From the NCBI GenBank assembly GCA_963724645.1, contig CAVRVJ010000005.1:397472-461471 (forward strand): a stretch of 64,000 bases of DNA. Reading direction: 5' to 3'. Made by a program: the position numbers and the translations under genes. Source of the DNA: an uncultured Acidobacteriota bacterium. Its GTDB lineage: Bacteria; Acidobacteriota; Vicinamibacteria; Vicinamibacterales; SCN-69-37. The stretch's first letter is position 1. Each line of letters starts with the position of its first letter. Below are positions 41,365 through 60,892 of this stretch, one piece after another. The notes under the pieces are model-generated. The model worked only from the letters and a program-made list of their open reading frames with translations, ran no database searches and was not told the DNA's origin.

Positions 41365-43332
41365 TCATGGGCGGTTGCCGTCAGTCGTCCAATGCCACGT
41401 GCCGAGCGCAAATGAGAGGCGGCGCGGATCGCGGTTGTCGCGGCGACCGCCATCCGGCGACGGAGGTTCCGCCGGGTGAAACGTGAGCTCGTGTTCTCCG
41501 GGAGTGAGGGTCAGCGAGCCGAGGTGATAGACCTGACGTGATGGTTCCACCTGCAGCGACGGCCTCGGCCGGCCGTCGAGCCGCAAATCCAACTGCCGCG
41601 AGTGCCTGAACGCCCAGAGCTCCACATCGAGGGCGGCCACGACCACATTGTGGCTTCGATTGATGACCGTCCAGGCCGCGTCCGCACCCATCCAACGCCA
41701 GCTCATCCGCTCATCGTGTTCGCGCACGAAGAAACCAGTCAGGACCGCGGTATATGCGGAAGGGGGAGACGCCGTGATCGTGAACAGATCCGCGAGACGG
41801 AAAGGGCGCTCCAGACGCAATCCGCCTGCCAATGGTGCCCGCGCGAACCAGTGTGCTTCGTCGGTGCCATGTCGGACGAGCAGATGGGTGAAGCCGGCGG
41901 CCGACAGCCGTTCGGCAAAGTTCGGCTCGAGGCAGTCATCGAGCGTTCCGCCGCGCAGGACAATTCGACCGCCTGTGAGCCATTGGATCGACGCCGACTC
42001 CTCATCAAGGGGGCTGCAGTCGAACGCTCTGGCACCTGCGTGCTGGACAACCCATCGATGCGCGGGCGTCGGCAGCACGTCACGCCACAATGCACCCGGC
42101 CAGATGGTGTACTCGCCGGCAGTGAGCGCCAGAAGCGTGACGCACGCGATGCTCGCACCTCGTGTTCCGGCGCGCCAAAGACGTTCCGCGCCGATCGCCG
42201 CCAGGAGCGCCGTCAGGAGCTGGACGACAACACCGAAGCGCGCATAGGAGCGGAACATCGGCAATGCATCGTAGAGGACGGCGGATGGCCACTTGACGCT
42301 GAATCGACCGATCGTGCTTTCGGGCGGGAGCGAGCAGACGAATGCGACGAGTGCGGTGATCAGCAACACCGGCACGGCCGCCAGCCGTTTCTCATCCCGG
42401 CCGTGGATCAGCCACGAAAATACCGCGACGGATCCCAAAGCGACCAGCCCCCAACCAAGGCTGACCTGCTGTTCGAGCAGCCCTTCGCGCGTGCCGGCCG
42501 CGGCCCATACCGCGCCCGCGACGCCGCCAAGAAATGGGTTCGCGACCGGAGGCACCAGATAGCTCCACCAGGTCGCGCTATATCGGAACAGATCGCTTCG
42601 GCCGAATGCAAATATCGCGGGATTGATCACCACGTCGTGGGCGGCGTGCCAGGCATAAGCGATTCCGGCGCCCGCAATGACAATAAGGCTGCCAATCGTG
42701 ACGGCGAGTCGTCGAGCCGAATGGGCCTGGCGTCGCGAGATGACGATCCAGTAGCTGACGATCGCCACCGGGGTGATGGCCGCTGCGATCAATCCGCCGT
42801 AAAAATTTGAGAGCACCACCGCCGCGCACGCAACCGCGAGGAGTCCGACCGCCGCGGCCGTGGGTGTGTCGAGACACCGCCAGAGCACGAGGATGTAGAG
42901 CGCCACCCATTGGGTCTGCGCAATGTGGGGGTGGTACGCCGCGTGTGCGAGGTGGAAGGGTGAAAAGGCGAACGCCATCGCGGCGAAGGCTGCGCCTGGA
43001 GGTGAGACCGCGAGGTGGCGCGCGAGCAGATACGACGTTGCGGCGGAGAGCGGGAACGTCAAGAGGACAAGCCAGTTGTACGCGGCCACTGGACCAGCCA
43101 TCCGCGCGAACAGCCTGCCCGGCAGATCGGTGAATGGCTGAAAGTACACGCCGCCCAGGACGGGGCGCGAGAACTGCTCCATCACGGTGAACGGATCGTG
43201 GTGGCGCCCGACGATTTCCATTCCGAAGATTCGGTCCGATGGCGCGAGGAGCACTGGAGCCGCGACGACGAGCGTGATGATGACGGCGAGCGCCACGACC
43301 GCGCTCACCTCAACGACACGACCGGTGGTCAT
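41365..43332 (-). CDS. Large polytopic membrane protein (GT-C/YfhO-like fold suspected) with a C-terminal extracytoplasmic domain
   Basis: About 13 hydrophobic helices followed by a ~250-aa soluble region. ATG 43332 overlaps the stop of the upstream exosortase-fusion gene (ATGA, 43329-43332). Confidence 0.6.
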   Translation of the reverse strand: MTTGRVVEVSAVVALAVIITLVVAAPVLLAPSDRIFGMEIVGRHHDPFTVMEQFSRPVLGGVYFQPFTDLPGRLFARMAGPVAAYNWLVLLTFPLSAATSYLLARHLAVSPPGAAFAAMAFAFSPFHLAHAAYHPHIAQTQWVALYILVLWRCLDTPTAAAVGLLAVACAAVVLSNFYGGLIAAAITPVAIVSYWIVISRRQAHSARRLAVTIGSLIVIAGAGIAYAWHAAHDVVINPAIFAFGRSDLFRYSATWWSYLVPPVANPFLGGVAGAVWAAAGTREGLLEQQVSLGWGLVALGSVAVFSWLIHGRDEKRLAAVPVLLITALVAFVCSLPPESTIGRFSVKWPSAVLYDALPMFRSYARFGVVVQLLTALLAAIGAERLWRAGTRGASIACVTLLALTAGEYTIWPGALWRDVLPTPAHRWVVQHAGARAFDCSPLDEESASIQWLTGGRIVLRGGTLDDCLEPNFAERLSAAGFTHLLVRHGTDEAHWFARAPLAGGLRLERPFRLADLFTITASPPSAYTAVLTGFFVREHDERMSWRWMGADAAWTVINRSHNVVVAALDVELWAFRHSRQLDLRLDGRPRPSLQVEPSRQVYHLGSLTLTPGEHELTFHPAEPPSPDGGRRDNRDPRRLSFALGTWHWTTDGNRP

Positions 43333-45125
43333 CCTCTTGGAATCACTCTCACGTCCACGTCCCGAGCGCCAAGCGCCGAGGCGAGTTTCTCCTTCCACGG
43401 CCACTCGGCGTGGGGCCGACAGCAGTACAGATCGAACGCGGCGAAAGCCTGTTCAGGGTACGTGTGTACGCTCAGGTGCGACTCCGACAGCATGGTGATG
43501 CCGGTGATGCCACCCTCGCCGGGAAACGCGTGCCACATCGGCGCGCCGACCGGCGTCAGGCCGAGCGACTCGACGACGTCGCGCAACAGTGCCTGCAAGA
43601 TAGCGGGCGACCGCAGGGCGTCCGGGTCGCACCCGGACGCGTCGACGACGTAGACGACGCCGGTCGATCGAACAGCCGCCCGTGCCGCTGCCGCCGGCGA
43701 CGTCCTCGGTGTGTCGAAGACGTCGACGCCCTGATAGCCGCGCCCGCGCGGGCCAGCCGCTGAGGTCCAGAAAAGCGCGACGATAGCCGGGACGCCGAGC
43801 GCCCAGCCCCGCACGATAACTGCGTGGGGCATGACACCCCACTGCGCATGCACGGCGGCGGCTCCTACGATGAAGCCGATCTGGGATCCGAGAAGCCAGC
43901 CGAGCCCGACAGCGAGTGCGCGCCACGCCCGTCCGCCAGTGAGGGCCAGCCACAGACCGCACGCGAGGGCGAGTTGGTAGCCGGGCATCAGCGCGAGCGC
44001 GCCCTGCTGATCGCCGGCGCTCGCGAGCGGAAGCGGCGCGATGTGGAAGCGGTTGGCCACGCCGCCCGCGACCCACTCGACGACGCTCCGCCAAGGCGTC
44101 GCCGCGACCACACCAACGGCGAGCGCTGCCCCCAGGACCGAAACGGAGGTCCACGACGATCGGGCCGTCGGGCCGTGCCGCGTCGCCCAGTGCGCAGCAC
44201 CGACGAGAACAACGGCGCCGGCAACGAACTGATAAAACCCGTGCGCCAGGTGCATCGGCGATTCGGCGACAAACGGCGGAAGGGCGACGACCAGCAGGCG
44301 CGCGACACTCAGCCCGAAAAACAGCGGCACGCCAAGAAACAGCCAGCCGATCCGTCGGTCACGGGGCATCGGCAGCGCGCACAGCGCCGCCGCATACAGG
44401 GGGATCATGGGCGTGAAGAGACACTCTGGCGTGACTTGGAAGCTGCCGCGCCCGCTGAACAGCACGTTGCCCGTCGTTTGAACGCTGACGCCGAGCGTGG
44501 AGAGCACCAGGCCTCCCACGCTCGTAGTCAAGGCCCCCACGCCGACGAGGGTCGAGCTCTGGAATGCCCACGGCAGCGAGGCGGCGTACGCGGCGAGCGC
44601 CACGGCCGCGAACAGGCCGAAGCGTAGCAATCGGCGATCGACCACGACCGATCGGCGATCACTCCACCGGATCCACGCCATCACGTATCCAACGGCCGCC
44701 AGGACGAGCGCAACCGGCCACACATACAGGTGCAGCAGGTCGAACCGCGCTGGATCGGACACGACCAGATACAGCGATTCGATACGCATCATATTCAAGG
44801 CAAGGATCAGGGCGAGTCCGCCGGCTGCGCCGGCGATGCGCCGGGGCCAAACGGCCGGATAGGCGAGCGTGACGCCCACGCATAAGGCCATCACGTCGGC
44901 GCCGCTGCAACTGGAGTTGACGACGATCCCCTTGTGTTCGGCGATCCCGTACCACATGACCACGGACTTCTGAAACTCGATGAGCGCCGTGATCACGTGT
45001 GCCTGGATCCACTCCAGTCGAAGGAGCCCGAAGAGCGCGACGTTCCAGACGAGCGCGCGGAGCAGGAAGCGGCCGGCGTGGTCGGGTACCGCCCGGTTCG
45101 CGATGGCGTGGGCGTGCGCCGTCAT
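43329..45125 (-). CDS. Exosortase-like membrane protein (two tandem exosortase-like modules) fused to a C-terminal S-adenosylmethionine decarboxylase (SpeH/SpeD class 1) domain
   Basis: Module 1 has 'VVNSSCSGADV' (Cys), 'LALNMMRIESL' (Asn/Arg) and 'FDLLHLYVWP' (His). Module 2 has 'FQVTPECLFTP', 'LSVARLLVV' and 'MHLAHGFYQ'. The C-terminus reads 'VVYVVDASGCDP...GITGITMLSESHLSVHTYPEQAFAAFDLYCC...RVIPRG'. RBS 'gaggaag' precedes ATG 45125. Confidence 0.7.
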   Translation of the reverse strand: MTAHAHAIANRAVPDHAGRFLLRALVWNVALFGLLRLEWIQAHVITALIEFQKSVVMWYGIAEHKGIVVNSSCSGADVMALCVGVTLAYPAVWPRRIAGAAGGLALILALNMMRIESLYLVVSDPARFDLLHLYVWPVALVLAAVGYVMAWIRWSDRRSVVVDRRLLRFGLFAAVALAAYAASLPWAFQSSTLVGVGALTTSVGGLVLSTLGVSVQTTGNVLFSGRGSFQVTPECLFTPMIPLYAAALCALPMPRDRRIGWLFLGVPLFFGLSVARLLVVALPPFVAESPMHLAHGFYQFVAGAVVLVGAAHWATRHGPTARSSWTSVSVLGAALAVGVVAATPWRSVVEWVAGGVANRFHIAPLPLASAGDQQGALALMPGYQLALACGLWLALTGGRAWRALAVGLGWLLGSQIGFIVGAAAVHAQWGVMPHAVIVRGWALGVPAIVALFWTSAAGPRGRGYQGVDVFDTPRTSPAAAARAAVRSTGVVYVVDASGCDPDALRSPAILQALLRDVVESLGLTPVGAPMWHAFPGEGGITGITMLSESHLSVHTYPEQAFAAFDLYCCRPHAEWPWKEKLASALGARDVDVRVIPRG

Positions 45126-45182: not shown

Positions 45183-45791
45183 TCATGCCGTCAAGATGCG
45201 CCGTCGCAGCGCGATGTACGCGCCCGCCATCATCAGCAGCGCACACACTCCGAGCATCCAGACCGGAAGCGTGGGAACGGCGCTCCCGACCGCGGGGAGG
45301 AAGCCGCGAATTTCACCGCCCGGGTTGTTGGCCGTGTGGATGTTGACGTAGGCCCGCCCCGCCGTGATCCCCGCCACCAACGCCGCTTCGGCGCTGGCCG
45401 GCGTGCCGCCGTTGGCGGTAATGAATGCTGGGTTCCAGCTGCCCGCCTGCGTCATGTCGTATGTCTGGTCCATGCTGCCGCTCGTGACGCCCAGAGGAAA
45501 GCCCACGAACGAAGGCGTTGTTGTCGCGACGCCGGCATTTCCTGGCGGCACCACGCAGCAGTGGATATGAGAAGCCGTCGTGTTCGACGTCAGTCCGGAG
45601 AATGTGGTCGTGACGCGTACCGTATGTCCAGGTGCGTTCACGATGACGGTCGTGAAGCCCGTTCCCGGCGATGAAACAGCCGGGTTCTCGTTGGCGCCCG
45701 CGAGCGAGGCCTGAAAAACCTGCGCTTGAGCCACCGAAGCCAAGATCAGAAACACGAAGCTTGCCGCCAGTCGTTCGCATGTGCGTCGCAC
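45183..45791 (-). CDS. CHRD domain protein with IPTLxxW-type (IPTL/PEP-CTERM-like) C-terminal sorting signal
   Basis: GTG 45791 preceded by 'aggaga'. Signal peptide 'LAASFVFLILASVAQAQ'. CHRD motifs 'LAGANENPAVSSPGTG', 'ASHIHCC', 'YVNIHTANNPGGEIRGFL'. The C-terminus is 'VPTLPVWMLGVCALLMMAGAYIALRRRILTA'. Confidence 0.75.
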   Translation of the reverse strand: MRRTCERLAASFVFLILASVAQAQVFQASLAGANENPAVSSPGTGFTTVIVNAPGHTVRVTTTFSGLTSNTTASHIHCCVVPPGNAGVATTTPSFVGFPLGVTSGSMDQTYDMTQAGSWNPAFITANGGTPASAEAALVAGITAGRAYVNIHTANNPGGEIRGFLPAVGSAVPTLPVWMLGVCALLMMAGAYIALRRRILTA

Positions 45792-45948
45792 GTGTATCTC
45801 CTGCCCCGGCCTGGAACCTATCAAGCGGGATGTCCGTCTGGGCCGACCGGGATTCGCACATTTATACACGAAGCGACGCCGGCGTGCGGGTCAGATTTTC
45901 TGCCGCAAATTGCCCTGGCCCGAGGCCGCCTGCGGACCCCGACCCTTC

Positions 45949-46512: not shown

Positions 46513-46956
46513 GTGAGCCGCATCGTGGAGGATTCACGCGCGCCTGACGACCCCCCACGCTTACCGGTGGTCAGGACGCCTCCTGGCGAGGCATCGGACC
46601 CGGTCGATCGAGCCGTGCTCGCGACGCTGGTTCTTGCGTTCGCGCCCGTGCACAAGGCCGCGCTTGGCGGTGCGGTCGGTATCACGCTCGGCGCGCTCGT
46701 CCTGACGCTGACGGCGTACCATCTGCTCGCGCAGCCGGAGCCCGCCCCTGATCTGCGGCTGCTGAACCAGTACTTCTTTGGCTACGCCGTCTCGTGGCCG
46801 GGCGCGTTCATTGGCGGTTTCTGGGCCGCCGTCGTGGGGTACGTCGCCGGCTGGTTCCTGGCGTTCCTGCGCAACCTCAGCGCCGCCACGATCCTGTTCA
46901 TGATTCGGACGCGCGCCGAATTGGAGCAGACCCGGGACTTCCTCGATCACATTTGA
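46513..46956 (+). CDS. Small membrane protein, paralog 1 of a three-member family
   Basis: 'ALGGAVGITLGALVLTLTAYHLL...LRLLNQYFFGYAVSWPGAFIGGFWAAVVGYVAGWFLAF'. Start is uncertain. Confidence 0.55.
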   Translation: MSRIVEDSRAPDDPPRLPVVRTPPGEASDPVDRAVLATLVLAFAPVHKAALGGAVGITLGALVLTLTAYHLLAQPEPAPDLRLLNQYFFGYAVSWPGAFIGGFWAAVVGYVAGWFLAFLRNLSAATILFMIRTRAELEQTRDFLDHI

Positions 46957-46964
46957 TCTCTCCC

Positions 46965-47273
46965 ATGACCGAGCATCTTTCACCCGACGAGGCCCGGGCC
47001 ATTCAACGGCAGGTGCGCCGCGTCAACGAGCAGGCGTGGGGCGTCGCCCTGGGAGCCTTGTCCGGTCTGGGCTTGTTCGCCGCGACCAACGTGCTGGTCC
47101 TGCGCGGCGGGTGGAACGTGGGAGCGCACCTGAGTTTGCTCCAGGTCTTCTTCCCGGGATACCGCGTGACATTCGTCGGGAGTCTGATCGGCTTCGTGTA
47201 CGCTTTCGTCCTGGGCTATGGCATCGGGTGGGCGATCGGGGCCCTGCTGGCGCGCTTCAATCGCGCGACGTGA
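46965..47273 (+). CDS. Small 2-TM membrane protein, paralog 2
   Basis: 'RRVNEQAWGVALGALSGLGLFAATNVLVLRGGWNVGAHLSLLQVFFPGYRVTFVGSLIGFVYAFVLGYGIGWAIG'. ATG 46965. Confidence 0.6.
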   Translation: MTEHLSPDEARAIQRQVRRVNEQAWGVALGALSGLGLFAATNVLVLRGGWNVGAHLSLLQVFFPGYRVTFVGSLIGFVYAFVLGYGIGWAIGALLARFNRAT

Positions 47274-47284
47274 CCCCACCGCCC

Positions 47285-48742
47285 ATGGCGCCTCGCACCG
47301 TCGATCAATTGCAACCAGGCGATCGTGTCATCGTGGTGGGCGCGGGTCCTGCCGGCCTGACGGCCGCCTATTTCCTACGCGATCGAGGCGTCCGCGTCAC
47401 TGTCCTCGAGGCCGACGACGTCGTCGGCGGCATCTCGCGCACGGCCCAGTACCGCGGCTTCCGGTTCGACATCGGGGGTCACCGCTTCTTCACCAAGATT
47501 GAAGCTGTCAATGCCATGTGGCAGGAGATTCTTGGGAACGAGCTCATCACCGTCCCGCGACTGTCGCGCATCTATTACCAGGGCAAGTATTTCGATTACC
47601 CGCTGAAGGCGGGCAAGACGCTCCGGCAGCTCGGCCCCTTCTCGGCCGCCGCCATCGTCCTCAGCTACTTCAAGTGGCGCCTCCGCCCCTATCCGGTTGA
47701 AGAGAACTTCGAGCAATGGGTGACCAACCGATTCGGGAAGCGGCTCTTCGAGATCTTCTTCAAGACTTACACGGAAAAAGTCTGGGGCATCCCGTGCCGT
47801 GAAATCAGAGCGGAGTGGGCCGCGCAACGCATTCAGGGATTGTCGCTGGCCAAGGCGGTCCTTGCGGCCACGCCGCTGAACAAGCGTGGCGCGGCGATCA
47901 AGACGCTCATCCACGAATTTCGGTACCCCCGACTCGGCCCGGGCCAGATGTGGGAGCGGTGCCAGGACCAGGTCGTGGCGGCCGGCCACGACGTGCTGCT
48001 GCGCCACCGGGTCCATCGCATCGAGCGTCGTGGCGACCGGATCGTGGCGGTCCACGCGTGCACGCCCGAAGGCGAACGCCGGTTCGAAGGGAACCACTTC
48101 TTTTTCACCATGCCGCTTCGATCCCTCGTCCGCGCGATGGATCCGGCCGTCCCGGCTGAGATCCGGGCCGCCGGCGAGGGGCTCGCGTACCGCGACTTCA
48201 TCCTCGTCGCCCTCGTCCTCGGACGACCGCGGCTGTTTCCCGACAACTGGATTTACATCCACAGTGCCAGCGTGAAGGTCGGGCGCATCCAGAACTTCAA
48301 CAACTGGAGCGCGGCGATGGTTCCCGTCGAGGGAAAAACGTGCCTGGGCCTCGAGTACTTCTGCTTCAAGGGCGACGCCCTGTGGGAGGCGTCCGATGAC
48401 GAACTGGTCCGGCTGGCCTCGCAGGAACTCGAGGTACTGAAGCTGGGACGCCGCGTCGATGTCGAAGACGGTACCGTCATCCGCATGCCCAAGGCGTATC
48501 CCATCTACGATTCCAGCTACCGCGCGAATCTCGCCGTCATCCGGTCGCTCGTCGACTCCATCGGCAATCTGCACACGATCGGCCGCAACGGCATGCACAA
48601 ATACAACAATCAGGATCATTCGATGCTGACAGCCATGCTCGCCGTGGAGAACCTGCACGGCGGCACCCACGATCTGTGGGAGATCAATAGCGATTTTGAT
48701 TACCATGAAGAGCAGCGCATCCAGCCGCAAGCCAGCCTATGA
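47285..48742 (+). CDS. NAD(P)/FAD-dependent oxidoreductase (amine-oxidase / protoporphyrinogen-oxidase / UDP-galactopyranose-mutase-like)
   Basis: ATG 47285. Dinucleotide fold 'VIVVGAGPAGLTAAYFLRDRGVRVTVLEADDVVGG'. 'GGHRFFTK', 'YPRLGPGQMWE', 'GRNGMHKYNNQDHSM'. Confidence 0.8.
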   Translation: MAPRTVDQLQPGDRVIVVGAGPAGLTAAYFLRDRGVRVTVLEADDVVGGISRTAQYRGFRFDIGGHRFFTKIEAVNAMWQEILGNELITVPRLSRIYYQGKYFDYPLKAGKTLRQLGPFSAAAIVLSYFKWRLRPYPVEENFEQWVTNRFGKRLFEIFFKTYTEKVWGIPCREIRAEWAAQRIQGLSLAKAVLAATPLNKRGAAIKTLIHEFRYPRLGPGQMWERCQDQVVAAGHDVLLRHRVHRIERRGDRIVAVHACTPEGERRFEGNHFFFTMPLRSLVRAMDPAVPAEIRAAGEGLAYRDFILVALVLGRPRLFPDNWIYIHSASVKVGRIQNFNNWSAAMVPVEGKTCLGLEYFCFKGDALWEASDDELVRLASQELEVLKLGRRVDVEDGTVIRMPKAYPIYDSSYRANLAVIRSLVDSIGNLHTIGRNGMHKYNNQDHSMLTAMLAVENLHGGTHDLWEINSDFDYHEEQRIQPQASL

Positions 48743-49038
48743 GCAGTGATGACGAGCGGCGTCTTCGGAAGAGGTACCTTCGGTTCAACGAACACGCCTG
48801 GGGGATTGGTTTGGCGCTCATCGTCGGCGGCGTCCTCTGGCTGGTCACAATCGCGCTCGTTTTGAGGGGCGGTTATCCCATCGGACCGCACCTCGGACTG
48901 CTTGCCGCGTATTTCCCCGGCTATCGCGTCACGGTGCCGGGCGCCTTCCTCGGCGCCGCGTATGGATTGATCGTCGGCTATGCGATCGGGCGAGTGATCA
49001 GCGGCCTCTACAACCGGCTGAGCGGGCCCGGCGCCTAG
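48739..49038 (+). CDS. Small 2-TM membrane protein, paralog 3
   Basis: 'LRFNEHAWGIGLALIVGGVLWLVTIALVLRGGYPIGPHLGLLAAYFPGYRVTVPGAFLGAAYGLIVGYAIGRVI'. ATGA overlap with the oxidoreductase stop. Confidence 0.6.
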   Translation: MSSDDERRLRKRYLRFNEHAWGIGLALIVGGVLWLVTIALVLRGGYPIGPHLGLLAAYFPGYRVTVPGAFLGAAYGLIVGYAIGRVISGLYNRLSGPGA

Positions 49039-49047: not shown

Positions 49048-50505
49048 ATGGCAGGCGCACGCGGGCTTCGGGGCAGGTTCGTTTTCCTCCGCGACTTCGG
49101 CATTCTCGCCGGCGGACAGGTGATCAGCCGGATCGTCGCGTTCCTCGCATTTGCCCGTCTCGCGCGGACGCTTGGCCCCCAGAACTACGGGCTCGTCGAG
49201 TATGTCGTCGGACTGGCCATGCTCTTCGGGGCGGCGGTCGAAACCGGCCTCGGCACGGTCGGCATCCGGCGCATCGCGCTGCGGCCGGAGCAACTGCCCG
49301 CGGTGGCCGCTCAGATTCCAACTGCCCGGTTCGTCATGGCCCTGGTGAGCGTGCCTGTCATGCTGTTGATTGCGCGCCCGCCGACGCACGGCACCGGCGC
49401 CCAGGGCCTCGTGTGGCTGTACGCTCTCAGCCTCCTGGTCGCTCCGTGGCGGCAGGACTGGCTGCTGCAGGCAACAGAGCGGATGACGGAGGCGGCCGTG
49501 GCGCAGATCCTGCGCACAACGGTCTTCGCCTTCGTCGTCATCACTCTGGTTGCCTCGCCGGACGATCTGCTGTGGGTGGGATGGGCCGAAGTGGCGGCGG
49601 TCTCAGCGATGAGCCTGTTCTGCTTCGCCGTCCAGCACGCCAGGATCACTCCCTGGCGGTTCCATGCATCCATCACGGGGCTGCCCGATCTGGCCACGGA
49701 GGGAGGCTTGATCGGTCTCGGGAGCATCGCGTGGTCGGCCAACCAATATGCGCCGCTCCTGCTGATGGCCTACTTCGCCGGCGGAGAGGAGACGGCGTGG
49801 TTCGCCGCCGCGAACCGCGTGATGGGATCGCTGCTGGCGTTCTCTAACCTTTATTACTTCAACCTCTATCCCGCCATCGCCCGCGCGACGGCGGCCGATC
49901 AGGACGAACTCGCGGCCATTCTGGCGGCGTCGTACCGGGTGCTCGCGTGGAGCGGCACGCTGGCGGCGCTGTGCCTGACGTTGCTCGCGGAGCCGCTGGC
50001 GACGCTCGCGTTCGGCGCGCAGTTCAGCCACGCGGCCTCCGTGCTGGCAATCATGGCCTGGGCGTTGCCCGTGGCGCTGCTCTCCGGGCATGCGCGCTGG
50101 TCTCTCGTCGCCGCGGGGGCGCAGGCGCGCGTGGTGTCCGCGCAGCTCGTCGGCTCAATCGCCGTTGTCGCCGTCGGAGTGCCCGCGATCCTGCTCCTGG
50201 GCGGACGCGGCGCCGCGCTCGCGGCGATTGCGGCACCGCTGGCCGTGTGGCTGGTCTCGCACGCGTTTGCCTCGCGCGTCGGCGTCAGGCTTCCTTTGTT
50301 CCGGCTCGGCTTCCGCCCCGCGTTGCTTGCGCTCGTCGCCGTGGCGGCCGTCAAGGCCCTGCATCTGACGTCGTGGTCCGCGGCGGCCGGCGTCGCGTTG
50401 TTTGCCGGCGCAGCGCCGTTTGTCGATCGGCAGCTTCTGCGGGACCTGCTCAGACTTGGCGAGATTCGCCGCAGCGCGCCGGTTCAGAGCACCGGCGCAG
50501 TCTGA
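49048..50505 (+). CDS. Polysaccharide biosynthesis protein / oligosaccharide flippase (Wzx-like, MOP superfamily)
   Basis: 485-aa ORF with about 12-14 helices and an N-terminal 'ILAGGQVISRIVAFLAFARLARTLGPQNYG' pattern. Confidence 0.75.
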   Translation: MAGARGLRGRFVFLRDFGILAGGQVISRIVAFLAFARLARTLGPQNYGLVEYVVGLAMLFGAAVETGLGTVGIRRIALRPEQLPAVAAQIPTARFVMALVSVPVMLLIARPPTHGTGAQGLVWLYALSLLVAPWRQDWLLQATERMTEAAVAQILRTTVFAFVVITLVASPDDLLWVGWAEVAAVSAMSLFCFAVQHARITPWRFHASITGLPDLATEGGLIGLGSIAWSANQYAPLLLMAYFAGGEETAWFAAANRVMGSLLAFSNLYYFNLYPAIARATAADQDELAAILAASYRVLAWSGTLAALCLTLLAEPLATLAFGAQFSHAASVLAIMAWALPVALLSGHARWSLVAAGAQARVVSAQLVGSIAVVAVGVPAILLLGGRGAALAAIAAPLAVWLVSHAFASRVGVRLPLFRLGFRPALLALVAVAAVKALHLTSWSAAAGVALFAGAAPFVDRQLLRDLLRLGEIRRSAPVQSTGAV

Positions 50506-50516: not shown

Positions 50517-51278
50517 ATGCCATCCACCGTTCCGATCCTGACGTTCCACGCGATCGACGATCGCCCGTCGGTGATCTCCTGCACGCCCAAAGTCTTCCGG
50601 GGAGGCATGGCCCTCCTGCATCAAGCCGGCTATCGCACCATGGGACTTCTGGAAGCCGTCGACTGCCTCCATCACGGAGGCGGGTTTCCCAAGCGGGCCT
50701 TCGTGCTCACGTTCGACGATGGGTTTCAGAGCGTGTATCGTGAAGCCTTTCCCGTGATGCGGGAGCTCGGGATGCGCGCGACGGTTTTTCTCACGGTCGG
50801 AGCGGCCCGCGGCGCGTCGACAGATCGACTGCCCTCATTCGAGGGTCGGACGATGCTGAGCTGGCGTGAGGTGCGGGAGATGCAGGCGGCCGGCGTCGAG
50901 GCCGGCGCCCACACACTTACCCACCCGGATCTCACGCGCCTGCCGGCCGCGCGGATTGCGGTGGAGATGCGCGAGTCGCGCGAGGTCATCGAGGACGCCG
51001 TCGGAGCCGCCGTGCGGACCTTCGCGTACCCGTTCGGGCGTTACCATCCGGACAGCCAGCGGATCGCGCGTGAATACTTCAGCTGCGCGTGCGCCGATAC
51101 GCTCGGGCTGGCATCCCGGCGCAGCGATCCCTACGCACTCGAGCGAGTGGACACCTACTACCTCCGTCATCGGCGCGTGTTCGCCCTGACGACGACGCCG
51201 CTGTTTCCCTGGTATGTTGCAGCGCGCAGTCTGCCGCGCCGGCTGCGGCGCGCGTTCGAACGACGCCGGTCCGCCTGA
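50517..51278 (+). CDS. Polysaccharide deacetylase (NodB/CE4 family)
   Basis: ATG 50517. 'VLTFDDGFQSVY', 'ATVFLTVG', 'GAHTLTHPDL', 'FAYPFGRY' CE4 motifs. Confidence 0.85.
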   Translation: MPSTVPILTFHAIDDRPSVISCTPKVFRGGMALLHQAGYRTMGLLEAVDCLHHGGGFPKRAFVLTFDDGFQSVYREAFPVMRELGMRATVFLTVGAARGASTDRLPSFEGRTMLSWREVREMQAAGVEAGAHTLTHPDLTRLPAARIAVEMRESREVIEDAVGAAVRTFAYPFGRYHPDSQRIAREYFSCACADTLGLASRRSDPYALERVDTYYLRHRRVFALTTTPLFPWYVAARSLPRRLRRAFERRRSA

Positions 51279-51289: not shown

Positions 51290-52561
51290 TTATTTGCCAG
51301 GCGGCGCGAGGGCCTCGGACAGGCTGACCAGTCCGCGCCGAGCCGCGACCGATCGAATGAGATCGAGATACGCAGCCAACGCGGCCGTCTCGCTCCATCT
51401 CGCGCGAAACGCGCGCTCGCCGGCCTCGCCCATCGCTTGTCTCCTGGCCGCGTCGATCGTGAAGGAGCTGATGGCGGCGTCGAGCTCCGCTTCGTTCTGG
51501 AACAGCAGCCCGCCGGCGCTGGCCTCGATGATCTCCGGGTACGGCCCGATGCGCCTGGCAATGACCGGCGTTCCGTGCCGGAAGGCTTCGAGCACGACCA
51601 GCGGAAACACCTCGTAGCCCACCGAGGGGGCGATCAGCGCACGGGCGCCGCCGTACAAAGCATGCAGGCGCTCCGGCGGAACGTGCCCCAGGAATTGCAC
51701 GTTGGGACTTCCACGCGCGAGCGCCCGCAGCTCCGCTTCGGCCGTTCCGGTCCCGGCGATCCGGAGATCGGCCGGGCGATGTTGGTCGAACAAAGGGATG
51801 ACCGCCTGCAGCCCTTTGATTCGCTCGAGCCTCCCGACGAACAGGAAATACGGCCGCGACGACTCGGGCGCGACCGGCACATCGGATGGGAGGTCGGGAA
51901 GGAATGACCCCATCACCGTCATTGCCGGTGTAAAGCCGAATTCGGCGTGCTTGTCGGCGCTGAACCGGCTGAGCGCGACGAAGGCGTCGATGTGGCGCGC
52001 CTCGCGGGGAAGCAGGCGGCTGGCACGCCACAGTTGCGGCGGCCGTCGGTAGGCGATCGCGCAGCGTACACACTGTCGGCTGGTGCACACCTCCCGGTTG
52101 TGCCGCCAGAGCGTGTGGGTCGGGCAGACGAGCCAGTGTTCATGTGCGGTATAGAGCTTCACGCCGGTGCCGCACTCGAGGACGCCGGGCCCGCCGATGA
52201 GCGACACATTGTGGAAATGGATGACATCGAACGGATCGGCCAGCAGCCGGCGGAGGCGGCGGCCGTGAACGATCCGGCGGCCGAGCTGGTGGGTCGCCAG
52301 AGACGACAGCGCGGGCAGCGCGCTCCGCAGGGCATGAACGGTCACGCCCGGCGACGGCGGCGGCACGGGGACCTTGCGGTGGCCGCCCAGAACGGCATAG
52401 GCGTCTGCATCGCAGATCACGTCGATGATGTGCCCGCGTCGCGCGAGCGCGTGGGCCAGGTTCCGGACGTACTCGCCATCTCCGCCGAAGCTGTATGGCG
52501 GGTAGAACGTGGTCACCATCGCGATGCGCAGAGGCCGTCGCGTGGGAATGACACCGGACAT
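51290..52561 (-). CDS. Glycosyltransferase family 4 (GT-B) with inserted Cys-rich segment
   Basis: 'RIAMVTTFYPPYSFGGDGEYV', 'FVGRLERIKG', 'PSVGYEVFPLVVLEAFRHGTPVI'. Cys cluster 'CPTHTLWRHNREVCTSRQCVRC'. Confidence 0.85.
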   Translation of the reverse strand: MSGVIPTRRPLRIAMVTTFYPPYSFGGDGEYVRNLAHALARRGHIIDVICDADAYAVLGGHRKVPVPPPSPGVTVHALRSALPALSSLATHQLGRRIVHGRRLRRLLADPFDVIHFHNVSLIGGPGVLECGTGVKLYTAHEHWLVCPTHTLWRHNREVCTSRQCVRCAIAYRRPPQLWRASRLLPREARHIDAFVALSRFSADKHAEFGFTPAMTVMGSFLPDLPSDVPVAPESSRPYFLFVGRLERIKGLQAVIPLFDQHRPADLRIAGTGTAEAELRALARGSPNVQFLGHVPPERLHALYGGARALIAPSVGYEVFPLVVLEAFRHGTPVIARRIGPYPEIIEASAGGLLFQNEAELDAAISSFTIDAARRQAMGEAGERAFRARWSETAALAAYLDLIRSVAARRGLVSLSEALAPPGK

Positions 52562-52630: not shown

Positions 52631-54232
52631 ATGTATGGTAAAAAATCGTCCACTGTGGCGCGGTGGCTCCCCGGCGAGGCTCGCGAGGGCGGCAGGTCAA
52701 GGACGTGGGTCTACCTTCTGATTCTGACCGGCATCAGTGTGGCCGCGCGCCTTCCGCAACTGCTCAGCCCCAATCTGCTGCTCGATGGCGACGAAAGCCT
52801 CATCGGTCTGATGGCGAAGCACGTCGCCGAAGGGCGGTCGCTCGCGATCTTCGTGTACGGCCAGCACTACGGGCTGTCGATAATCGAAACGGCCGCGGGC
52901 GCGCTCAGCTTTCTCCTGTTTGGCATGGGCGCGATCCCGTTGAAGGTCGCCATGTTGGCGCTGTGGACACTGGGCGTGCTGTTCATGTTTCTGGCGCTGT
53001 CACGAATGATCGGGGCCTGGCGCAGCTTCTGGATCATGGCGGTGTTTCTCGTCACGCCCGCCTGGGCCGCGACGTCGATGACCGCCTGGGGAGGCTACAC
53101 GACGGCCTTTACCGTCACCTCCGTGCTGGTCTGGCTGCTGGTCAGCGGCCTGCCGCACGACGGGATCGTGCGATGGCTCATCGCCGGGGCGTTGACGTCG
53201 GTGATCTATCTGGCGCGGCCGCTCTGGCTGCCGGGTCTCCTGCCGATCGTGGCCGTTGTCCTCTTCGCATCGCAGAGACGGCTGTCATTGGGCATCAGCT
53301 ATGTCGGCGGGGCCGCCGCGGTCATGGCGGTCATCAAACTGCTGACCGTCGACAGCCTCAACGTGTGGGAAGGACCCGCGCTGGGCAACTGGGCACTGCT
53401 CGAGACGCTGCCCGGCGCCGCACGCCAGGTCTATGTGAACCTGACCGGCGCCTATTTCCTTGGTGGAATGCGCGAACCGCCAGGGCCGGCGAGCGAACTG
53501 CTCGCGCGGCTCTGGTGTGTCCTGCTCCTGTTGGTGGTTCCGGCACAGGTGTATCGCATAGTCACCAGGCGATACTGTGTTCTCTCACATTTGCTGTTCC
53601 TGGCTGTCTGCGCATCGCTGATCACGCCGTGGCTACTGTTCTTCGTCCGCGACGCGCGATATCTTCTGCCGCTCGGCGCGCCGCTTGTCGTCCTCGCCGG
53701 CGTCGAGCTACTCGATTTCGTCGACCGGGGAATCGTCCCCAGGCGGGTGGCCATCGCCGCGACCACGGCGGCGCTCGTGCTGGGATCCATGTCGATGTAC
53801 AAATTCCGGAAGTTCAACCATTTGTGGGTGAATCCGCCGAACGCCCTGGCCGAAGCCGAGAGAATGCACCGCGTGATCTTCTACCTGCAGGCGAAAGGCA
53901 TCAGGCACGTGTTCTCGATGAACGGACTGCTCGACTCCCAGCTCGTCTTCTACAGCGAAGAGCGTGTGCTCGCTCGATGGACTCCCTGGAGGGTCCGCTA
54001 TCCGCCGTACACCCACTCGGTCAATCGAGCGCTGGATCGTGGGATGACGGTCGCCCTCGTGGGCTATACCGACACGAGCGGCGCACCTGGCTGCTCGAAC
54101 GCGCAAGTCTGCACCGGCGGGATTGCCAGGCTCGTGCCGCATCCGGAATCCATCGTCACTGTGGATGACAAGTACTTCATCGTCGCCGGCGTCACCAAGC
54201 CAGTGCTGAAGCGGCTGGGGTTCAGGTTCTGA
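52631..54232 (+). CDS. GT-C-fold membrane glycosyltransferase-like protein (ArnT/PMT-like)
   Basis: 533-aa ORF. The first loop 'LLLDGDESLIGLMAKHVAEG' contains an acidic motif. More than 10 helices and a C-terminal soluble domain. Confidence 0.65.
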   Translation: MYGKKSSTVARWLPGEAREGGRSRTWVYLLILTGISVAARLPQLLSPNLLLDGDESLIGLMAKHVAEGRSLAIFVYGQHYGLSIIETAAGALSFLLFGMGAIPLKVAMLALWTLGVLFMFLALSRMIGAWRSFWIMAVFLVTPAWAATSMTAWGGYTTAFTVTSVLVWLLVSGLPHDGIVRWLIAGALTSVIYLARPLWLPGLLPIVAVVLFASQRRLSLGISYVGGAAAVMAVIKLLTVDSLNVWEGPALGNWALLETLPGAARQVYVNLTGAYFLGGMREPPGPASELLARLWCVLLLLVVPAQVYRIVTRRYCVLSHLLFLAVCASLITPWLLFFVRDARYLLPLGAPLVVLAGVELLDFVDRGIVPRRVAIAATTAALVLGSMSMYKFRKFNHLWVNPPNALAEAERMHRVIFYLQAKGIRHVFSMNGLLDSQLVFYSEERVLARWTPWRVRYPPYTHSVNRALDRGMTVALVGYTDTSGAPGCSNAQVCTGGIARLVPHPESIVTVDDKYFIVAGVTKPVLKRLGFRF

Positions 54233-54337: not shown

Positions 54338-55927
54338 ATGATTGTTGACATCCGGTCGCTGCCGAGCGGCACGGTCGTGGAATCGGATCTCTGCATCATC
54401 GGCGCTGGCGCCGCGGGCGTCGCGATGGCGATGCAGTTGGCAGGCGCCACAGTGCGCGTCTCGCTCCTGGAGAGTGGCGGCCTCGAACCCGACGCCGCGA
54501 CCCAAGCGCTCGCAGCCGGCGAGCAGTCGGGCGTACCGTACTTCGACCTTGCGACGACGCGCTATCGCTTGCTGGGCGGCAGCACACTCCATTGGGGCGC
54601 ACGCAGCGCCCCGTTGAAGTCCATTGATTTCGCGCGCCGGGCCTGGGTGCCCCACAGCGGGTGGCCGCTGGCGGCCGATGCTCTCGATCCGTACTTCGAC
54701 CGGGTCTTCGATTTGATAGGGCTCCACCGCCCGTTCGCGTTCGACGCCGAGGTATGGAAGCTGTTCGACCATTTGCCTCCCGCGCTGGACGCGAACCTCG
54801 TGGAATACTCGGCGTTTCAATTCGGCAAGAACCTGCTGCTCGGGAAGACCCTTCGCAAGCAGTTACGGCCATCCGGGAACGTCACCGCCTATCTGCACGC
54901 GAACGCGCTCGGCCTTCAGGCCACTCCGCGAGGGGATCACGTGACTGGCGTGGACGTGGCCGCGCTGACGGGGCAGCGGTACCTGTTCAAGGCCCGCCGC
55001 TACGTCCTGGCGTGCGGCGGCATCGAGAATGCGCGCCTGCTGCTCCTCTCCAACGCGATCCATCCAGCCGGCTTGTGCAACGAACGCGATCTGGTCGGAC
55101 GCTATTTCATGGAGCATCCGACCGTCCCCGCCGGAACGATGGCAGCAGAAGAGTGGCGGAGGCTCCAGCCGGTCTTTTCTCCAGGCCTGGTCGGCGGTCA
55201 TCTCGTCGAGATCGGCATGGCGCTGTCACCGCGCCTGCAGGAAGCGCGACGGTGCCTGAACGCCGTCGCGCGCGCGGTCCCCGTCCTCGCCGCGGACTCG
55301 ACGCAGGCGTTGCGAGAGCTGCTGTGGAGCCTTCGGCGCCGGAGCCTCCCTCCCCGTCTCGTGGAGCACGAGAAACGCGAATGGCTGCTGCAGCGGCTCG
55401 GCGCAGTGGCACGGGATCCGCTCGGAATCGCCATGAACGCGCTGCGCCACGCGTCAGGCCGGGCGAATCGGTTCAACGTGGACCGCGTGCTGCTGGAGAT
55501 CCGCACGGAGCAGGCGCCCAATCCGGACAGCCGCGTCACCCTGTCGGACCGTACAGATGCCCTGGGCCAGCGGTGCGCCCACCTGCACTGGGCGCTGACC
55601 CGAGAGGACAAGCGCACCATGCAGACCGCGGCGGAAGCATTTGCCGGAGAGATGCGTCGCCTGGGCTGGGGCGCCGTTCAGATCATGCCGTGGCTCGAGA
55701 CGGACGATCCGGTCTGGCCGCCGGACATGGTTGGCGGTCACCATCACATGGGCACTACGCGCATGTCGGCGGATCCGCACACCGGCGTTGTCGACGAGAG
55801 CTGCAAGGCCCACACGATGGACAATCTCTACATTGCCGGCAGTTCGGTCTTCCCCACCGCCGGCTACGCCAACCCGACACTGACGATATTGGCCCTGGCG
55901 ATCAGGCTGGCGGATCACCTCCGTTGA
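54338..55927 (+). CDS. GMC family FAD-dependent oxidoreductase
   Basis: 'DLCIIGAGAAGVAMAMQL...LLESGG', 'GGSTLHWGA' and a C-terminal 'GGHHHMGTTRMS...VVDESCKAHTMDNLYIAGSSVFPT'. Confidence 0.85.
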   Translation: MIVDIRSLPSGTVVESDLCIIGAGAAGVAMAMQLAGATVRVSLLESGGLEPDAATQALAAGEQSGVPYFDLATTRYRLLGGSTLHWGARSAPLKSIDFARRAWVPHSGWPLAADALDPYFDRVFDLIGLHRPFAFDAEVWKLFDHLPPALDANLVEYSAFQFGKNLLLGKTLRKQLRPSGNVTAYLHANALGLQATPRGDHVTGVDVAALTGQRYLFKARRYVLACGGIENARLLLLSNAIHPAGLCNERDLVGRYFMEHPTVPAGTMAAEEWRRLQPVFSPGLVGGHLVEIGMALSPRLQEARRCLNAVARAVPVLAADSTQALRELLWSLRRRSLPPRLVEHEKREWLLQRLGAVARDPLGIAMNALRHASGRANRFNVDRVLLEIRTEQAPNPDSRVTLSDRTDALGQRCAHLHWALTREDKRTMQTAAEAFAGEMRRLGWGAVQIMPWLETDDPVWPPDMVGGHHHMGTTRMSADPHTGVVDESCKAHTMDNLYIAGSSVFPTAGYANPTLTILALAIRLADHLR

Positions 55928-56001: not shown

Positions 56002-57019
56002 TCAGCGATCGGTGCGGAACTGATCTCTCCATCGGCGGATGGCGGCGTCTGGCGTTCTGATGGACAGCTCGAGGGGCGCCAGAATCATCTGCTCGAGCCG
56101 CTGAAACTCCGTGCGGCCGACGGTCGGGAGACCGAAATCCGCGCCCATCTCGCGGGCCCTGTTGTCGATTTCCACGATGATCGTCCGGCGTCCGTGCTGC
56201 AGCGCACGCAGCCCGGCGTGGAGCCGGTTGCCCACATAGTCCAGGTCCAGGTCGGACGCCAGCACGCCGTCAAGGGCGCGCACGCTCGGATTGATGACGA
56301 CCATGCCGTCCTGCAACGATCGCGCGTATTCGTAGTCCGTGTGTGTCTGAATCCACAGATAGACGGTGCGATAGTGGCGCTGCAGAATTTCGAGCAGCCG
56401 CCGATCCGCTGAAGCATCTTGCAGACCCGCATAACTGTTGACGGTGGTCACGACGGCATTCGCCTTCTCACGCGGCACGCGCGCGCACCTGTCGGCGGTC
56501 ACATTCCACATGGTGGGACAGCCGGTGTTGACCGCGTTGGTGATGCCGATCGACGCCAGCATCCGAAGCGTGTAGCTGTCCCGGACGGAATGAAGATGAT
56601 CGCGGCTCAGCAGGCGCCTGAGCATCCAGCGGGAGTACAGGATCCGGCGCATGCTGGTATTGGTGCCAGCCGGCGCCGAGGAGCACGATATCGAGTCCGG
56701 CCAGGGCATCGATCGGCGAGACACGCCAACTCGGCCGGAACCACATCCGCGAGCTCAGAAGACTCGTCCCGCCGGAAATCGCCCAGTCGGCTTGCCGGAT
56801 CAGGTGGCGGCTGTGCGCTCCCATCCTTTCATGGCTCGTGAGCGTGAACACCATGGACTCGGGAAAGAGGTCATCGATCTCATGGCGCACGGCCTCCATG
56901 ATGATCTGGTCACCGAGGTTGGTCGAGGCGGCTGCGGTGTCGAGCAGCGCGATCGTCCCCGTGGACGGCGCGGAGGCGTGGGCCCGCCGACAGTATTGCG
57001 CGATCGGTTCAGGCACCAT
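56002..57019 (-). pseudogene. Polysaccharide pyruvyl transferase family protein, one frame slip near 56655
   Basis: N-terminal 'TIALLDTAAASTNLGDQIIMEAV...ISGGTSLL...IVLLGAG' (ORF 56468..57121). It continues 'LLSRDHLHSVRDSYTLRMLASIGITNAVNTGCPTMW' (ORF 56002..56724). Confidence 0.7.
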
Positions 57020-59948: not shown

Positions 59949-60892
59949 GAGGGGCCGCCCGACAGAAGCACGGTCGCTGCCAACCCGACCGCCCCACCTG
60001 CCAGCAGGATGGTCTGCCAGAGCAGGCCCGTCGCAACCACCGCCGTGGGCGATGCGCCAAAAGGCGCGAGGAAGCCCGCCAAACTTGCCTCCCGCACGCC
60101 GATTCCGCCCAGACTGATGGGCAGCATCGCAATGATTTTCGACAGCGGCCATGCGAAGAACCAGGCCGCAAGGGGCGCGTTCACGCCGGCGCCTTCCGCC
60201 AGGATGACGTTCGCAAAGACGAAGGCCGCCTGCACAACCATCGATAGCGTCAGACACATCACCAGTCGAACGGGGCGGCGCGCCAGGAGGACGACACCAG
60301 AACTGATCCCCTCTCCAAGCCGACGTCCTCTGCTGTCCGGTGACAAGCGACTGAGCAGCGCCGGAAAGAACCGAGGCGCCGCGATCGCGCTGAAGAAGAG
60401 CACGGCAAACGCCGCCGCGATCCCGAGAAGCCAGCGGCCGCCCCACGGCACGCTGCGAAACGTGAATGCCAGGCCCGCCGCGGCGGCCAGCAGGAGTCCG
60501 ACGGTATCGACCAGCCGGTCCGCGACTGACCCGACCGCCAGGCGCGTCTTGTCAGCGACGCGGCGGTGGAGCACCGCAGCGCGAACGAGGTCTCCGCTCG
60601 CGAGTCCCGGCAGCCAGAGGTTCGCGGCAAGTCCGGCGAAATGCGCGCGAAGCACGGCGCCGAATCCGGCTTCCTCGCCAACGAGCAGTCGCCACTTCGC
60701 GGCTGAGACGATGTGCCCCGCGATGAAGATCAGAAGCGTCGCGATCCATCGGCTGGCGTCGGTACGCCGAATGGTTGAGAAGACCGCTTGCATGGGCAGG
60801 ACCGAGAAGATCGCGGCGAGCACGAGAGCGGAGACCGCCACTCGCAGGCCGCGATGGAACCACAGACGCCTTCGTCCGATTGGAGAGGTCAT
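59894..60892 (-). CDS. UPF0104 / lysylphosphatidylglycerol-synthase-TM-region-like (flippase-like) membrane protein
   Basis: 332-aa ORF: 'IAGHIVSAAKWRLLV', 'PGLASGDLVRA', 'LSKIIAMLPISLGGIGVREA'. Confidence 0.7.
   Translation of the reverse strand: MTSPIGRRRLWFHRGLRVAVSALVLAAIFSVLPMQAVFSTIRRTDASRWIATLLIFIAGHIVSAAKWRLLVGEEAGFGAVLRAHFAGLAANLWLPGLASGDLVRAAVLHRRVADKTRLAVGSVADRLVDTVGLLLAAAAGLAFTFRSVPWGGRWLLGIAAAFAVLFFSAIAAPRFFPALLSRLSPDSRGRRLGEGISSGVVLLARRPVRLVMCLTLSMVVQAAFVFANVILAEGAGVNAPLAAWFFAWPLSKIIAMLPISLGGIGVREASLAGFLAPFGASPTAVVATGLLWQTILLAGGAVGLAATVLLSGGPSQRRNENEAEGPQRVTTI

Follow-up and report, generated by a model that had tools for sequence, protein, structure and literature searches.

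We analysed a stretch of 64,000 nucleotides (the window) from contig CAVRVJ010000005.1 of an uncultured Acidobacteriota bacterium, in which the genes of three small membrane proteins, here called A, B and C, stand around the gene of a soluble flavoenzyme that looks like a UDP-galactopyranose mutase (UGM). A, B and C are paralogous proteins of two transmembrane (TM) helices each (hairpins hereafter). On sequence evidence the reading that we favour, and to which we give an even chance, is that they form a hetero-oligomeric membrane tether or scaffold for this UGM-like enzyme within a glycan-assembly complex.

Paralogy and conservation of the hairpin proteins

The three open reading frames (ORFs) that an earlier note, made from the letters of this DNA, had located were recovered at the same coordinates, on the forward strand, by ORF listing (Table 1). 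The note's claim that they are paralogues with a common two-helix core and a motif between the helices was borne out: B and C share 43% identity over 95 amino acids (aa) (E=6e-27), and A matched C with E=4e-9 and B with E=2e-6. The motif strings it quoted are all present, but in an order that does not match the ORFs, as 'LRLLNQYFFGY...' lies in A, 'HLSLLQVFFPGY...' in B and 'HLGLLAAYFPGY...' in C. The core common to the three proteins comprises a first TM helix (TM1), the conserved loop GG..VG.HL.LL..YFPGY.VT..G and a glycine-rich second helix (TM2). Using orthologues from a related Acidobacteriota genome (L005), we obtained ratios of nonsynonymous to synonymous substitution rates (dN/dS) of 0.22 (A), 0.16 (B) and 0.34 (C); given these ratios and the thousands of homologues described below, A, B and C are real genes under purifying selection.

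A-type proteins have a variable N-terminus, the two TM helices and an additional cytoplasmic C-terminal helix ending in ...TRDFLDHI. Across 23 aligned A-types the F-L-D of this ending is invariant, and T-R-D and H are conserved in at least 90%. TRDFLDHI-COOH (46930..46953 in the window) is thus near-invariant in relatives only 44-69% identical to the A of the window overall, and fusions of the flavoenzyme to A carry a related tail, ...RRAEL..LR.LLEY, in its place. B-types are the most conserved subfamily, with 62% mean column identity over 30 diverse members and invariant residues that include W25, G26, T41, G48, G49, G53, H55, P64, G65, Y66, G72, G76, Y79, G84, Y85 and G88.

A neighbour-joining tree separated the hairpins into three clades. 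The B of the window clustered with the N-terminal halves of natural B-C fusions, and its C with the C-terminal halves of these fusions and with the free-standing protein P0031; because of this placement we judge C to be a genuine third subfamily rather than a recent local duplicate. A structure of a B-C fusion predicted with AlphaFold2 (AF2), with a predicted local distance difference test (pLDDT) score of 79, showed four long helices and found no match in the PDB with Foldseek (best E=1.1).

Identity of the flavoenzyme

The enzyme encoded between B and C, described in the earlier note as a soluble-looking FAD oxidoreductase, has no TM segment, in agreement with a soluble protein; its PDB relatives and active-site motifs point to the UGM type rather than to a generic oxidoreductase. 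It belongs to NCBIfam NF005548 (PRK07208.1-4, 'hypothetical protein'), with 686.1 bits against a cut-off of 389 and with residues 16-483 aligned to profile positions 4-474 of 488, and it carries the Pfam domains Amino_oxidase and NAD_binding_8. Its nearest solved relatives are eukaryote-type UGMs (A. fumigatus, T. cruzi; E of ~1e-18), followed by bacterial UGMs and protoporphyrinogen oxidase at ~1e-7 to 1e-8. Alignment to 4u8l paired DIGGHRFF with DVGGHVIF, AAQRI with LGERV, and GRNGMHKYNNQDHS with GRFGSWRYEVGNQDHS. The enzyme thus shares three features with eukaryote-type UGMs (Glf): the GGH of the flavin loop, the arginine of AAQR and, near the C-terminus, GR-x4-(K/R)Y-x-N-QDHS (here GRNGxHKYNNQDHS). 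In the A. fumigatus enzyme these would correspond to the flavin-loop H63, the diphosphate-binding R182 and the C-terminal R447, Y453 and N457; R327 and Y419 were not alignable. The same motif positions are invariant across 60 fused relatives.

It differs from curated UGMs in having a family of its own, PRK07208.1-4, and in scoring below their cut-offs (TIGR00031, 36.1 against 303.75 bits; GLF PF03275, 15.9 against 26.3), while a precomputed PF03275 match is present on a few of the fused relatives. A low-confidence AF2 model of an enzyme-hairpin fusion (pLDDT 63) gave 3ukh as its top Foldseek match, a search that places the fold at superfamily level only (UGM, amine oxidase or protoporphyrinogen oxidase). 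We call the enzyme UGM-like because the motifs are kept while the curated thresholds are missed and the model resolves only the superfamily. To our knowledge, UGMs have no membrane partners or TM fusions, and our literature search found none.

Two observations concern related genes. The earlier note's second oxidoreductase paralogue at the end of the window exists, but lies on the reverse strand and is much more distant: this UGM/amine-oxidase-like gene has its N-terminus beyond position 64000 and reads leftwards into a radical-SAM/SPASM gene (Table 1), homologues of which occur near A-B in 14/82 of the loci surveyed below, directly after B in L030 and L035. In L002/L005, a close relative represented by a long-read metagenome-assembled genome, the flavoenzyme gene is split over several frames (L002 6300..7800) with the flanking hairpin genes intact, probably an assembly indel error rather than a pseudogene.

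Protein fusions and membrane topology

To collect relatives, we performed an exhaustive HMMER search of 1.84 billion representatives, which yielded 1175 clusters (50% identity) at E<=1e-3, 480 of them at E<=1e-10. The long proteins among them were scanned with Pfam and their clusters inspected. The flavoenzyme is followed by a C-terminal A-type hairpin in P0298 (602 aa; 7 members from several independent assemblies) and preceded by two hairpins in P0194 (706 aa; a singleton). Two hairpins are joined to a GT2 glycosyltransferase in P0183 (520 aa; 7 members in NCBI genomes, ~17 contigs), and three to a Wzy_C domain in P0175 (780 aa; a singleton). Hairpins are also fused to one another: three in P0160 (344 aa; 25 members), A to B in P0020, and B to C in many proteins of ~190 aa that dominate the top profile matches.

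The best 120 relatives of P0298 are all 587-630 aa long and align over 96-100% of its length with 61-78% identity, so that the clade of enzyme-hairpin fusions numbers 120 clusters or more; in 60 that were aligned, the glycines of the hairpin do not vary. The same enzyme type thus occurs as a soluble protein with separate hairpins in the window and with a hairpin at its C-terminus in this clade. Two loci of the clade (L168, L169) encode in order a GT2 (293 bits to the GT2 of other loci), the enzyme-A fusion and a separate B-type of 109 aa. De novo ORF calls added two GT2-A fusions, of which that of L058 looks real and that of L074, with a spacer of 117 aa, may be read-through; we therefore let P0183 stand as the evidence for fusion to GT2.

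These arrangements constrain the topology. The flavoenzyme depends on FAD and nucleotide sugars of the cytoplasm, and in the fusions it may stand on either side of the hairpins; both termini of a hairpin must therefore be cytoplasmic and the conserved loop must lie at the outer face of the membrane. The linker geometry of the hairpin-hairpin fusions implies that the subunits lie parallel in one complex.

Gene neighbourhoods of the hairpin genes

We surveyed 82 loci with hairpin genes as seeds (80 species genomes, L004 and the window), 41 of which have complete flanks of 10 kb on both sides. In nearly all 82, a B-type gene has an A-type gene directly before it, in the same orientation, the exceptions being a few truncated contigs, one frameshifted A and L036, with A ~1.3 kb upstream. 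For this reason the A-B pair is the general unit; it usually closes an operon at its 3' end, immediately behind a membrane GT2. A separate C gene was found in the window and its close relative only, and fused B-C genes in L004 and L085-L087, so the triplication around one enzyme noted earlier is present in the window but is specific to its lineage.

The usual operon of Gemmatimonadota reads flavoenzyme, GT4, in some cases a second GT4, deacetylase, membrane GT2, A and B, with the pair at the 3' end. Of the 41 loci with complete flanks, 37 have the flavoenzyme (mostly at >500 bits) no further than 10 kb from A-B, 37 have a membrane GT2 there, 34 a GT4 and 31 a deacetylase; 27 have all four. The hairpin genes are thus conserved beside homologous oxidoreductases, as the earlier note had expected. 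The gene immediately upstream of A is a GT2 in 45/82 loci, a deacetylase in 10, the flavoenzyme in 6 and a GT4 in 3, the commonest order being deacetylase, GT2, A, B. The GT2s have ~2-4 hydrophobic segments C-terminal to the catalytic domain, and none scored above the cut-off of a named GT2 equivalog; scores against the hopanoid (HpnI/K/J), carotenoid glycoside (CruG), poly-N-acetylglucosamine, holdfast and mycofactocin glycosyltransferases all fell far below the cut-offs, and these pathways were rejected. Rarer neighbours are PMT_2-like GT-C transferases (~21/82), Wzx-like flippases (21/82 within 10 kb), the radical-SAM/SPASM proteins already mentioned, UbiA-family prenyltransferases, sugar epimerases or dehydratases, and sulfate-activation genes. 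Individual loci encode CysN/APS kinase fusions, a UbiA-family prenyltransferase directly after B, or a sulfatase-family protein (L030 11516..14868, L014 10069..11157, L062 16667..18529), which hints at products that are sulfated or linked to a polyprenyl-phosphate carrier.

The position of the pair after a GT2 bears on a different reading, in which A and B (and C) are a translocator: a bundle of four to six helices, or a higher oligomer, would flip a lipid-linked sugar or pass a nascent chain, and the link to the flavoenzyme would be secondary. Such a bundle would fill the slot of GtrA, ArnE/ArnF or PgaD/IcaD in other GT2-based systems. We hold this to be somewhat unlikely and nonetheless a serious rival, and a translocating or channel-completing role is compatible with tethering. 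It accounts for the commonest gene order and for the GT2-hairpin-hairpin fusion P0183, and it suits partner GT2s with so few TM segments of their own. The orders GT2-A-B-enzyme-GT-C (PMT_2) in L061 and PMT_2-GT2-A-B in L047 are those of three-component GtrB/GtrA/GtrC-like systems, and the frequency of PMT_2-like genes, the near-invariant outer loop and a TM2 rich in small-xxx-small motifs also fit. On the other side, the conserved TM residues are mostly glycines, suited to packing, with a single polar pair (T41-N42); the window and the B-C-fusion loci already have a Wzx-like flippase and lack a GT2; the large clade of enzyme-hairpin fusions is left unexplained; and we know of no flippase made of two-helix subunits.

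The small proteins that occupy this slot elsewhere are of two kinds. GtrA, ArnE/ArnF and the Rv3789 type are small flippases of lipid-linked sugars with four TM helices each and GtrA or DMT/SMR folds; ArnE and ArnF are a heterodimer of paralogues, and Rv3789 stands beside the FAD enzyme DprE1. Like them, the hairpins are small membrane proteins whose genes can lie between those of a GT2 and a GT-C transferase, but each of A, B and C has only two helices, and a Pfam search (E<=1) found no similarity to GtrA (PF04138), EamA/SMR, PgaD or IcaD; NCBIfam likewise gave no match to PgaD or IcaD. In the poly-N-acetylglucosamine synthases PgaC and IcaA, a small two-TM protein, PgaD or IcaD, is thought to complete the membrane part of the synthase. 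The commonest order of the surveyed loci, though not that of the window, which has no such GT2, shares with them a two-TM gene beside a membrane GT2 and a PF01522 deacetylase. The surveyed loci differ in that the GT2s reach 46-52 bits against a PgaC_IcaA (TIGR03937) cut-off of 422, that the hairpins are two or three paralogues and not one, and that the link to a flavoenzyme has no Pga or Ica counterpart.

The glycosyltransferases might also be the true partners, the hairpins being accessory or stabilising subunits of the GT2 or the GT4, as DPM2/DPM3 are of DPM1 and PIG-P/PIG-Y of PIG-A, with a flavoenzyme that is merely co-regulated. This we regard as quite unlikely. GT2 adjacency and GT2 fusion speak for it, as do the GT4, which accompanies the pair in 34/41 loci with full flanks and stays 52% identical across phyla, and the order GT4-GT4-deacetylase-A-BC kept by the B-C-fusion loci, where the flavoenzyme is absent. 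Fusions to the flavoenzyme were, however, far commoner than fusions to GT2 in the searches made; L117 has A-enzyme-B with no GT2 or GT4 found by phmmer within 10 kb; and the hairpins show no similarity to DPM2, DPM3, PIG-P or PIG-Y.

To gauge conservation, we compared the proteins of the window with those of the other loci (80 for B). The flavoenzyme reached a median identity of 67%, followed by B (59%), A (54%), the GT4 (52%) and C (47%), and then by the deacetylase (31%) and Wzx (26%); by these values, the flavoenzyme, the hairpins and one GT4 are an unusually conserved core.

A second survey, of 80 metagenome loci retrieved with the flavoenzyme of the window as the query, returned the order enzyme-A-B on ~11 contigs and the bracketed order A-enzyme-B on ~10 independent contigs (L115, L117, L123, L127, L128, L135, L141, L144, L148 and L154). 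In L117, A (121 aa), the enzyme (501 aa) and B (121 aa) are followed by a soluble protein of 524 aa without a TM segment and a polytopic Wzx-like protein of 433 aa, both unannotated. Three further loci (L119, L125, L145) have the enzyme with a C-terminally fused A-type hairpin, then B. Among flavoenzyme orthologues of at least 64% identity with enough flank, 12/14 have A/B, whereas many homologues of 52-55% identity with full flanks do not; from this it follows that the hairpins nearly always accompany the flavoenzyme, and that in the wider enzyme family some members occur without them. A short conserved tail, ...(A/S)(S/T)QP.VP.R, closes the flavoenzyme of most bracketing loci; this tail is absent from the window enzyme and its orthologues of at least 64% identity and present in a few of the 52-55% homologues without hairpins (L140, L161).

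In all four B-C-fusion loci, the fused gene is directly followed on the opposite strand by that of a polytopic membrane protein of 508-560 aa without a Pfam domain (pairwise E 1e-115 to 1e-148; Table 1), which may be a partner of the three-hairpin version.

A proposed membrane tether for the UGM-like enzyme

Under the tether reading, the two-helix hairpins A and B, joined by C in the lineage of the window, would assemble as subunits of one hetero-oligomeric membrane module, each hairpin having its two ends in the cytoplasm and its conserved loop on the outside. Such a module would bind the soluble UGM-like flavoenzyme and keep it at the inner face of the membrane, beside the membrane enzymes of surface-glycan assembly, which in most genomes would be a GT2 with C-terminal TM helices and in the window a Wzx/Wzy-type route with GT4s. 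The enzyme, acting as a mutase, would then make a furanose donor at its site of use, which could be an advantage because the ring-contracted form is unfavoured at equilibrium. The enzyme-hairpin fusions of other lineages would be a covalent version of the same link. In favour of this reading are the fusions of hairpins to one another and to the flavoenzyme, the neighbourhoods seen from either seed, the gene order of the fusion clade, the similar conservation of enzyme, B, A and GT4 across phyla, and the UGM-like character of an enzyme devoid of TM segments.

Soluble enzymes of sugar pathways held by small membrane proteins are known. DPM2 and DPM3 with DPM1, Alg14 with Alg13, and PIG-P and PIG-Y with PIG-A are non-catalytic small membrane proteins that tether or stabilise such an enzyme; DPM2, DPM3, PIG-P and PIG-Y have two TM helices each, and in other lineages the same enzyme has a TM segment of its own. 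The hairpins resemble these two-TM proteins, and enzymes with their own TM segment have a parallel in the enzyme-hairpin fusions. They differ in lacking detectable similarity, in having as partner a UGM-like flavoenzyme and not only a glycosyltransferase, in being paralogous to one another and in their very strongly conserved outer loop.

Several findings weigh against this reading. Hairpins are also fused to the GT2 of P0183 and the Wzy_C protein of P0175, and it is the GT2 rather than the flavoenzyme that usually precedes A. The B-C-fusion loci have no flavoenzyme in the stretch seen (~4-9 kb of flank) and carry the polytopic protein (there ~510-560 aa) in its place, and many enzyme homologues of 52-55% identity stand by themselves, with hairpin genes absent from the 10 kb on either side. 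The enzyme-hairpin fusion gave a poor AF2 model (pLDDT 63). A simple tether, moreover, could do without two or three conserved paralogues and without a far-side loop in which W25, G26, T41, G48, G49, G53, H55, P64, G65, Y66 and others are near-invariant; both hint at a further function.

The earlier note had proposed a hetero-oligomeric membrane anchor of the oxidoreductase. The hetero-oligomer agrees with the fusions between paralogues (B-C, A-B in P0020, the triple P0160), and the anchor with the enzyme-hairpin fusions, the flavoenzyme near A-B in 37/41 loci and the recurrent A-enzyme-B bracketing, but the fusions to GT2 and to a Wzy-like protein and the B-C loci without a flavoenzyme nearby mean that the hairpins are not simply an anchor of this enzyme.

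The number of paralogues, the outer loop, the position after a GT2 with few TM segments, the GT2/A-B/GT-C orders and the enzyme-less B-C loci suggest a role beyond tethering. It is conceivable, if unlikely, that the hairpins, together with the few TM helices of the GT2 (or with a Wzy-like or polytopic partner), make up a split membrane machine of a kind not described before, coupling UGM-like ring contraction to the transfer and translocation of a furanose-containing glycan or glycolipid, whose outer loop would handle the lipid-linked product. In a variant of this idea, by analogy with DprE1, the flavoenzyme would act at the membrane on a lipid-linked sugar and not on a UDP-sugar.

Family size and database status

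The profile search from the three sequences that the earlier note had suggested revealed a large family, with 3208 proteins at E<=1e-3 among 8000 candidates scored, mostly of 97-110 aa and all unnamed or 'hypothetical' and without a Pfam domain. Two exact peptide patterns alone match 324 species genomes from the Acidobacteriota, Gemmatimonadota, Planctomycetota and Verrucomicrobiota. A Pfam search of A, B and C gave only noise at E<=1, a search of PHROGs gave nothing meaningful, and NCBIfam yielded a single match, below threshold.

The sole curated model that consistently matched the family is NCBIfam NF037947 ('holin_4, bacteriophage holin'), always below threshold, which raises the question of whether the hairpins are holins of the phage type. 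A (34.0 bits), B (26.5) and C (20.2) match it over its full 75 positions, as do 23/23 A-type relatives at up to E=7e-13, and the similar size, the two-TM layout and a glycine-zipper-like TM2 are holin-like. All scores, however, are far below the 70-bit cut-off, which leaves the hairpins outside that family; A and B had no tblastn match at E<=1 in 50,697 phage genomes, and PHROGs had no meaningful match; the surveyed loci are glycan-biosynthetic, with no lysis or phage genes among those annotated; and the family includes fusions with a flavoenzyme, a GT2 and a Wzy-like protein. We consider a holin identity extremely improbable and rejected a phage origin on the sub-threshold scores, the lack of a phage homologue and the glycan context.

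Literature searches on PRK07208, small two-TM accessory proteins and membrane-anchored UGMs found nothing relevant. No curated family or paper was thus found for the hairpins or for a membrane-tethered UGM-like enzyme, and absence from the libraries searched is not proof. What appears to be new is the hairpin family with its architecture of paralogues and its partner enzyme; small membrane subunits that hold a soluble sugar-pathway enzyme are already known.

Gene arrangement in the window

In the window, A, B, the flavoenzyme, C, the Wzx-like gene and the deacetylase are packed as one operon. The stop of A lies 8 nucleotides (nt) before the start of B; the TGA stop of B overlaps the possible GTG start of the enzyme (GTGA, 47270-47273), for which an alternative ATG lies 11 nt on; the ATGA overlap of the enzyme stop with the start of C, noted earlier, was found at 48739-48742; and gaps of 9 and 11 nt precede the Wzx-like gene and the deacetylase gene. 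No membrane GT2 of the type associated with A-B is present in the window. The polytopic protein encoded after the operon could be a Wzy-like polymerase or a GT-C transferase, and is unrelated to the polytopic protein of the B-C-fusion loci.

Table 1. Genes of the hairpin locus, other genes of the window, and the polytopic neighbours of B-C fusions in four further loci.
Feature	Coordinates	Strand	Details
Gene A, A-type hairpin protein	46513..46956	+	ORF listing over 44-52 kb; start at GTG 46513 gives 147 aa; public annotation (P0023) begins at GTG 46525, 143 aa
Gene B, B-type hairpin protein	46965..47273	+	102 aa, identical to P0004
PRK07208-type FAD enzyme, UGM-like, without TM segment	47270..48742	+	~485 aa; NF005548, Pfam; start at GTG 47270 or ATG 47285
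Gene C, C-type hairpin protein	48739..49038	+	99 aa, identical to P0012
Wzx-like flippase (Polysacc_synt family)	49048..50505	+	L002 orthologue has PF01943; weak NCBIfam Wzx_EPS match
Polysaccharide deacetylase, PF01522 type	50517..51278	+	downstream of the flippase gene
GT4 glycosyltransferase	51290..52561	-	convergent with the operon; orthologue of the GT4 that co-occurs with A-B elsewhere
Polytopic protein	52631..54232	+	533 aa, ~9 hydrophobic segments; no Pfam or NCBIfam match; follows the glycan operon
GMC-family FAD oxidoreductase	54338..55927	+	downstream of the glycan operon
Rieske-domain protein	57009..58397	-	downstream of the glycan operon
Flippase-like membrane protein	59894..60892	-	TIGR00374, 43.9 bits against a cut-off of 43.2; beyond the glycan operon
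Radical-SAM/SPASM protein	62145..63353	-	
Second UGM/amine-oxidase-like gene	~63350..>64000	-	
Polytopic membrane protein	41365..43404	-	679 aa, ~7 hydrophobic segments; no Pfam or NCBIfam match
Exosortase-decarboxylase fusion	43329..45125	-	598 aa
CHRD-domain protein	45183..45869	-	PF07452; adjoins the exosortase fusion
Polytopic neighbour of B-C fusion, L004	6727..8409	-	
Polytopic neighbour of B-C fusion, L085	7559..9097	-	
Polytopic neighbour of B-C fusion, L086	9614..11173	-	
Polytopic neighbour of B-C fusion, L087	9491..11017	-	

Upstream of the operon, on the reverse strand, the N-terminal membrane part of one protein matches the exosortase/archaeosortase model TIGR04178 (44.7 bits against a cut-off of 23), nearest to XrtH and XrtX, and its last 110 aa constitute an S-adenosylmethionine decarboxylase (PF02675, 86.7 bits; TIGR03330, 74.5 against a cut-off of 75.65), an unusual fusion. 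The adjacent CHRD-domain protein ends in a hydrophobic helix and RRR, resembling a sorting signal of the PEP-CTERM type with VPTLP replacing PEP, and is probably a substrate of this exosortase fusion.

Significance

In textbooks UGMs are soluble, and the equilibrium disfavours furanose donors; a dedicated and conserved membrane partner, in a large clade part of the same chain as the enzyme, would, if true, be a new coupling of donor synthesis to donor use. The tether reading, if it holds, would give a name and a testable role to more than 1000 small membrane proteins now called 'hypothetical'. Annotation easily overlooks or disregards small membrane proteins of this kind, so that turning the present alignments into a Pfam-type model would have a value of its own. 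The hairpins are common in abundant, poorly studied soil phyla (Acidobacteriota, Gemmatimonadota), where they mark a conserved gene set of mutase-like enzyme, GT4, deacetylase, membrane GT2, A and B, the product of which would be a glycan or glycolipid.

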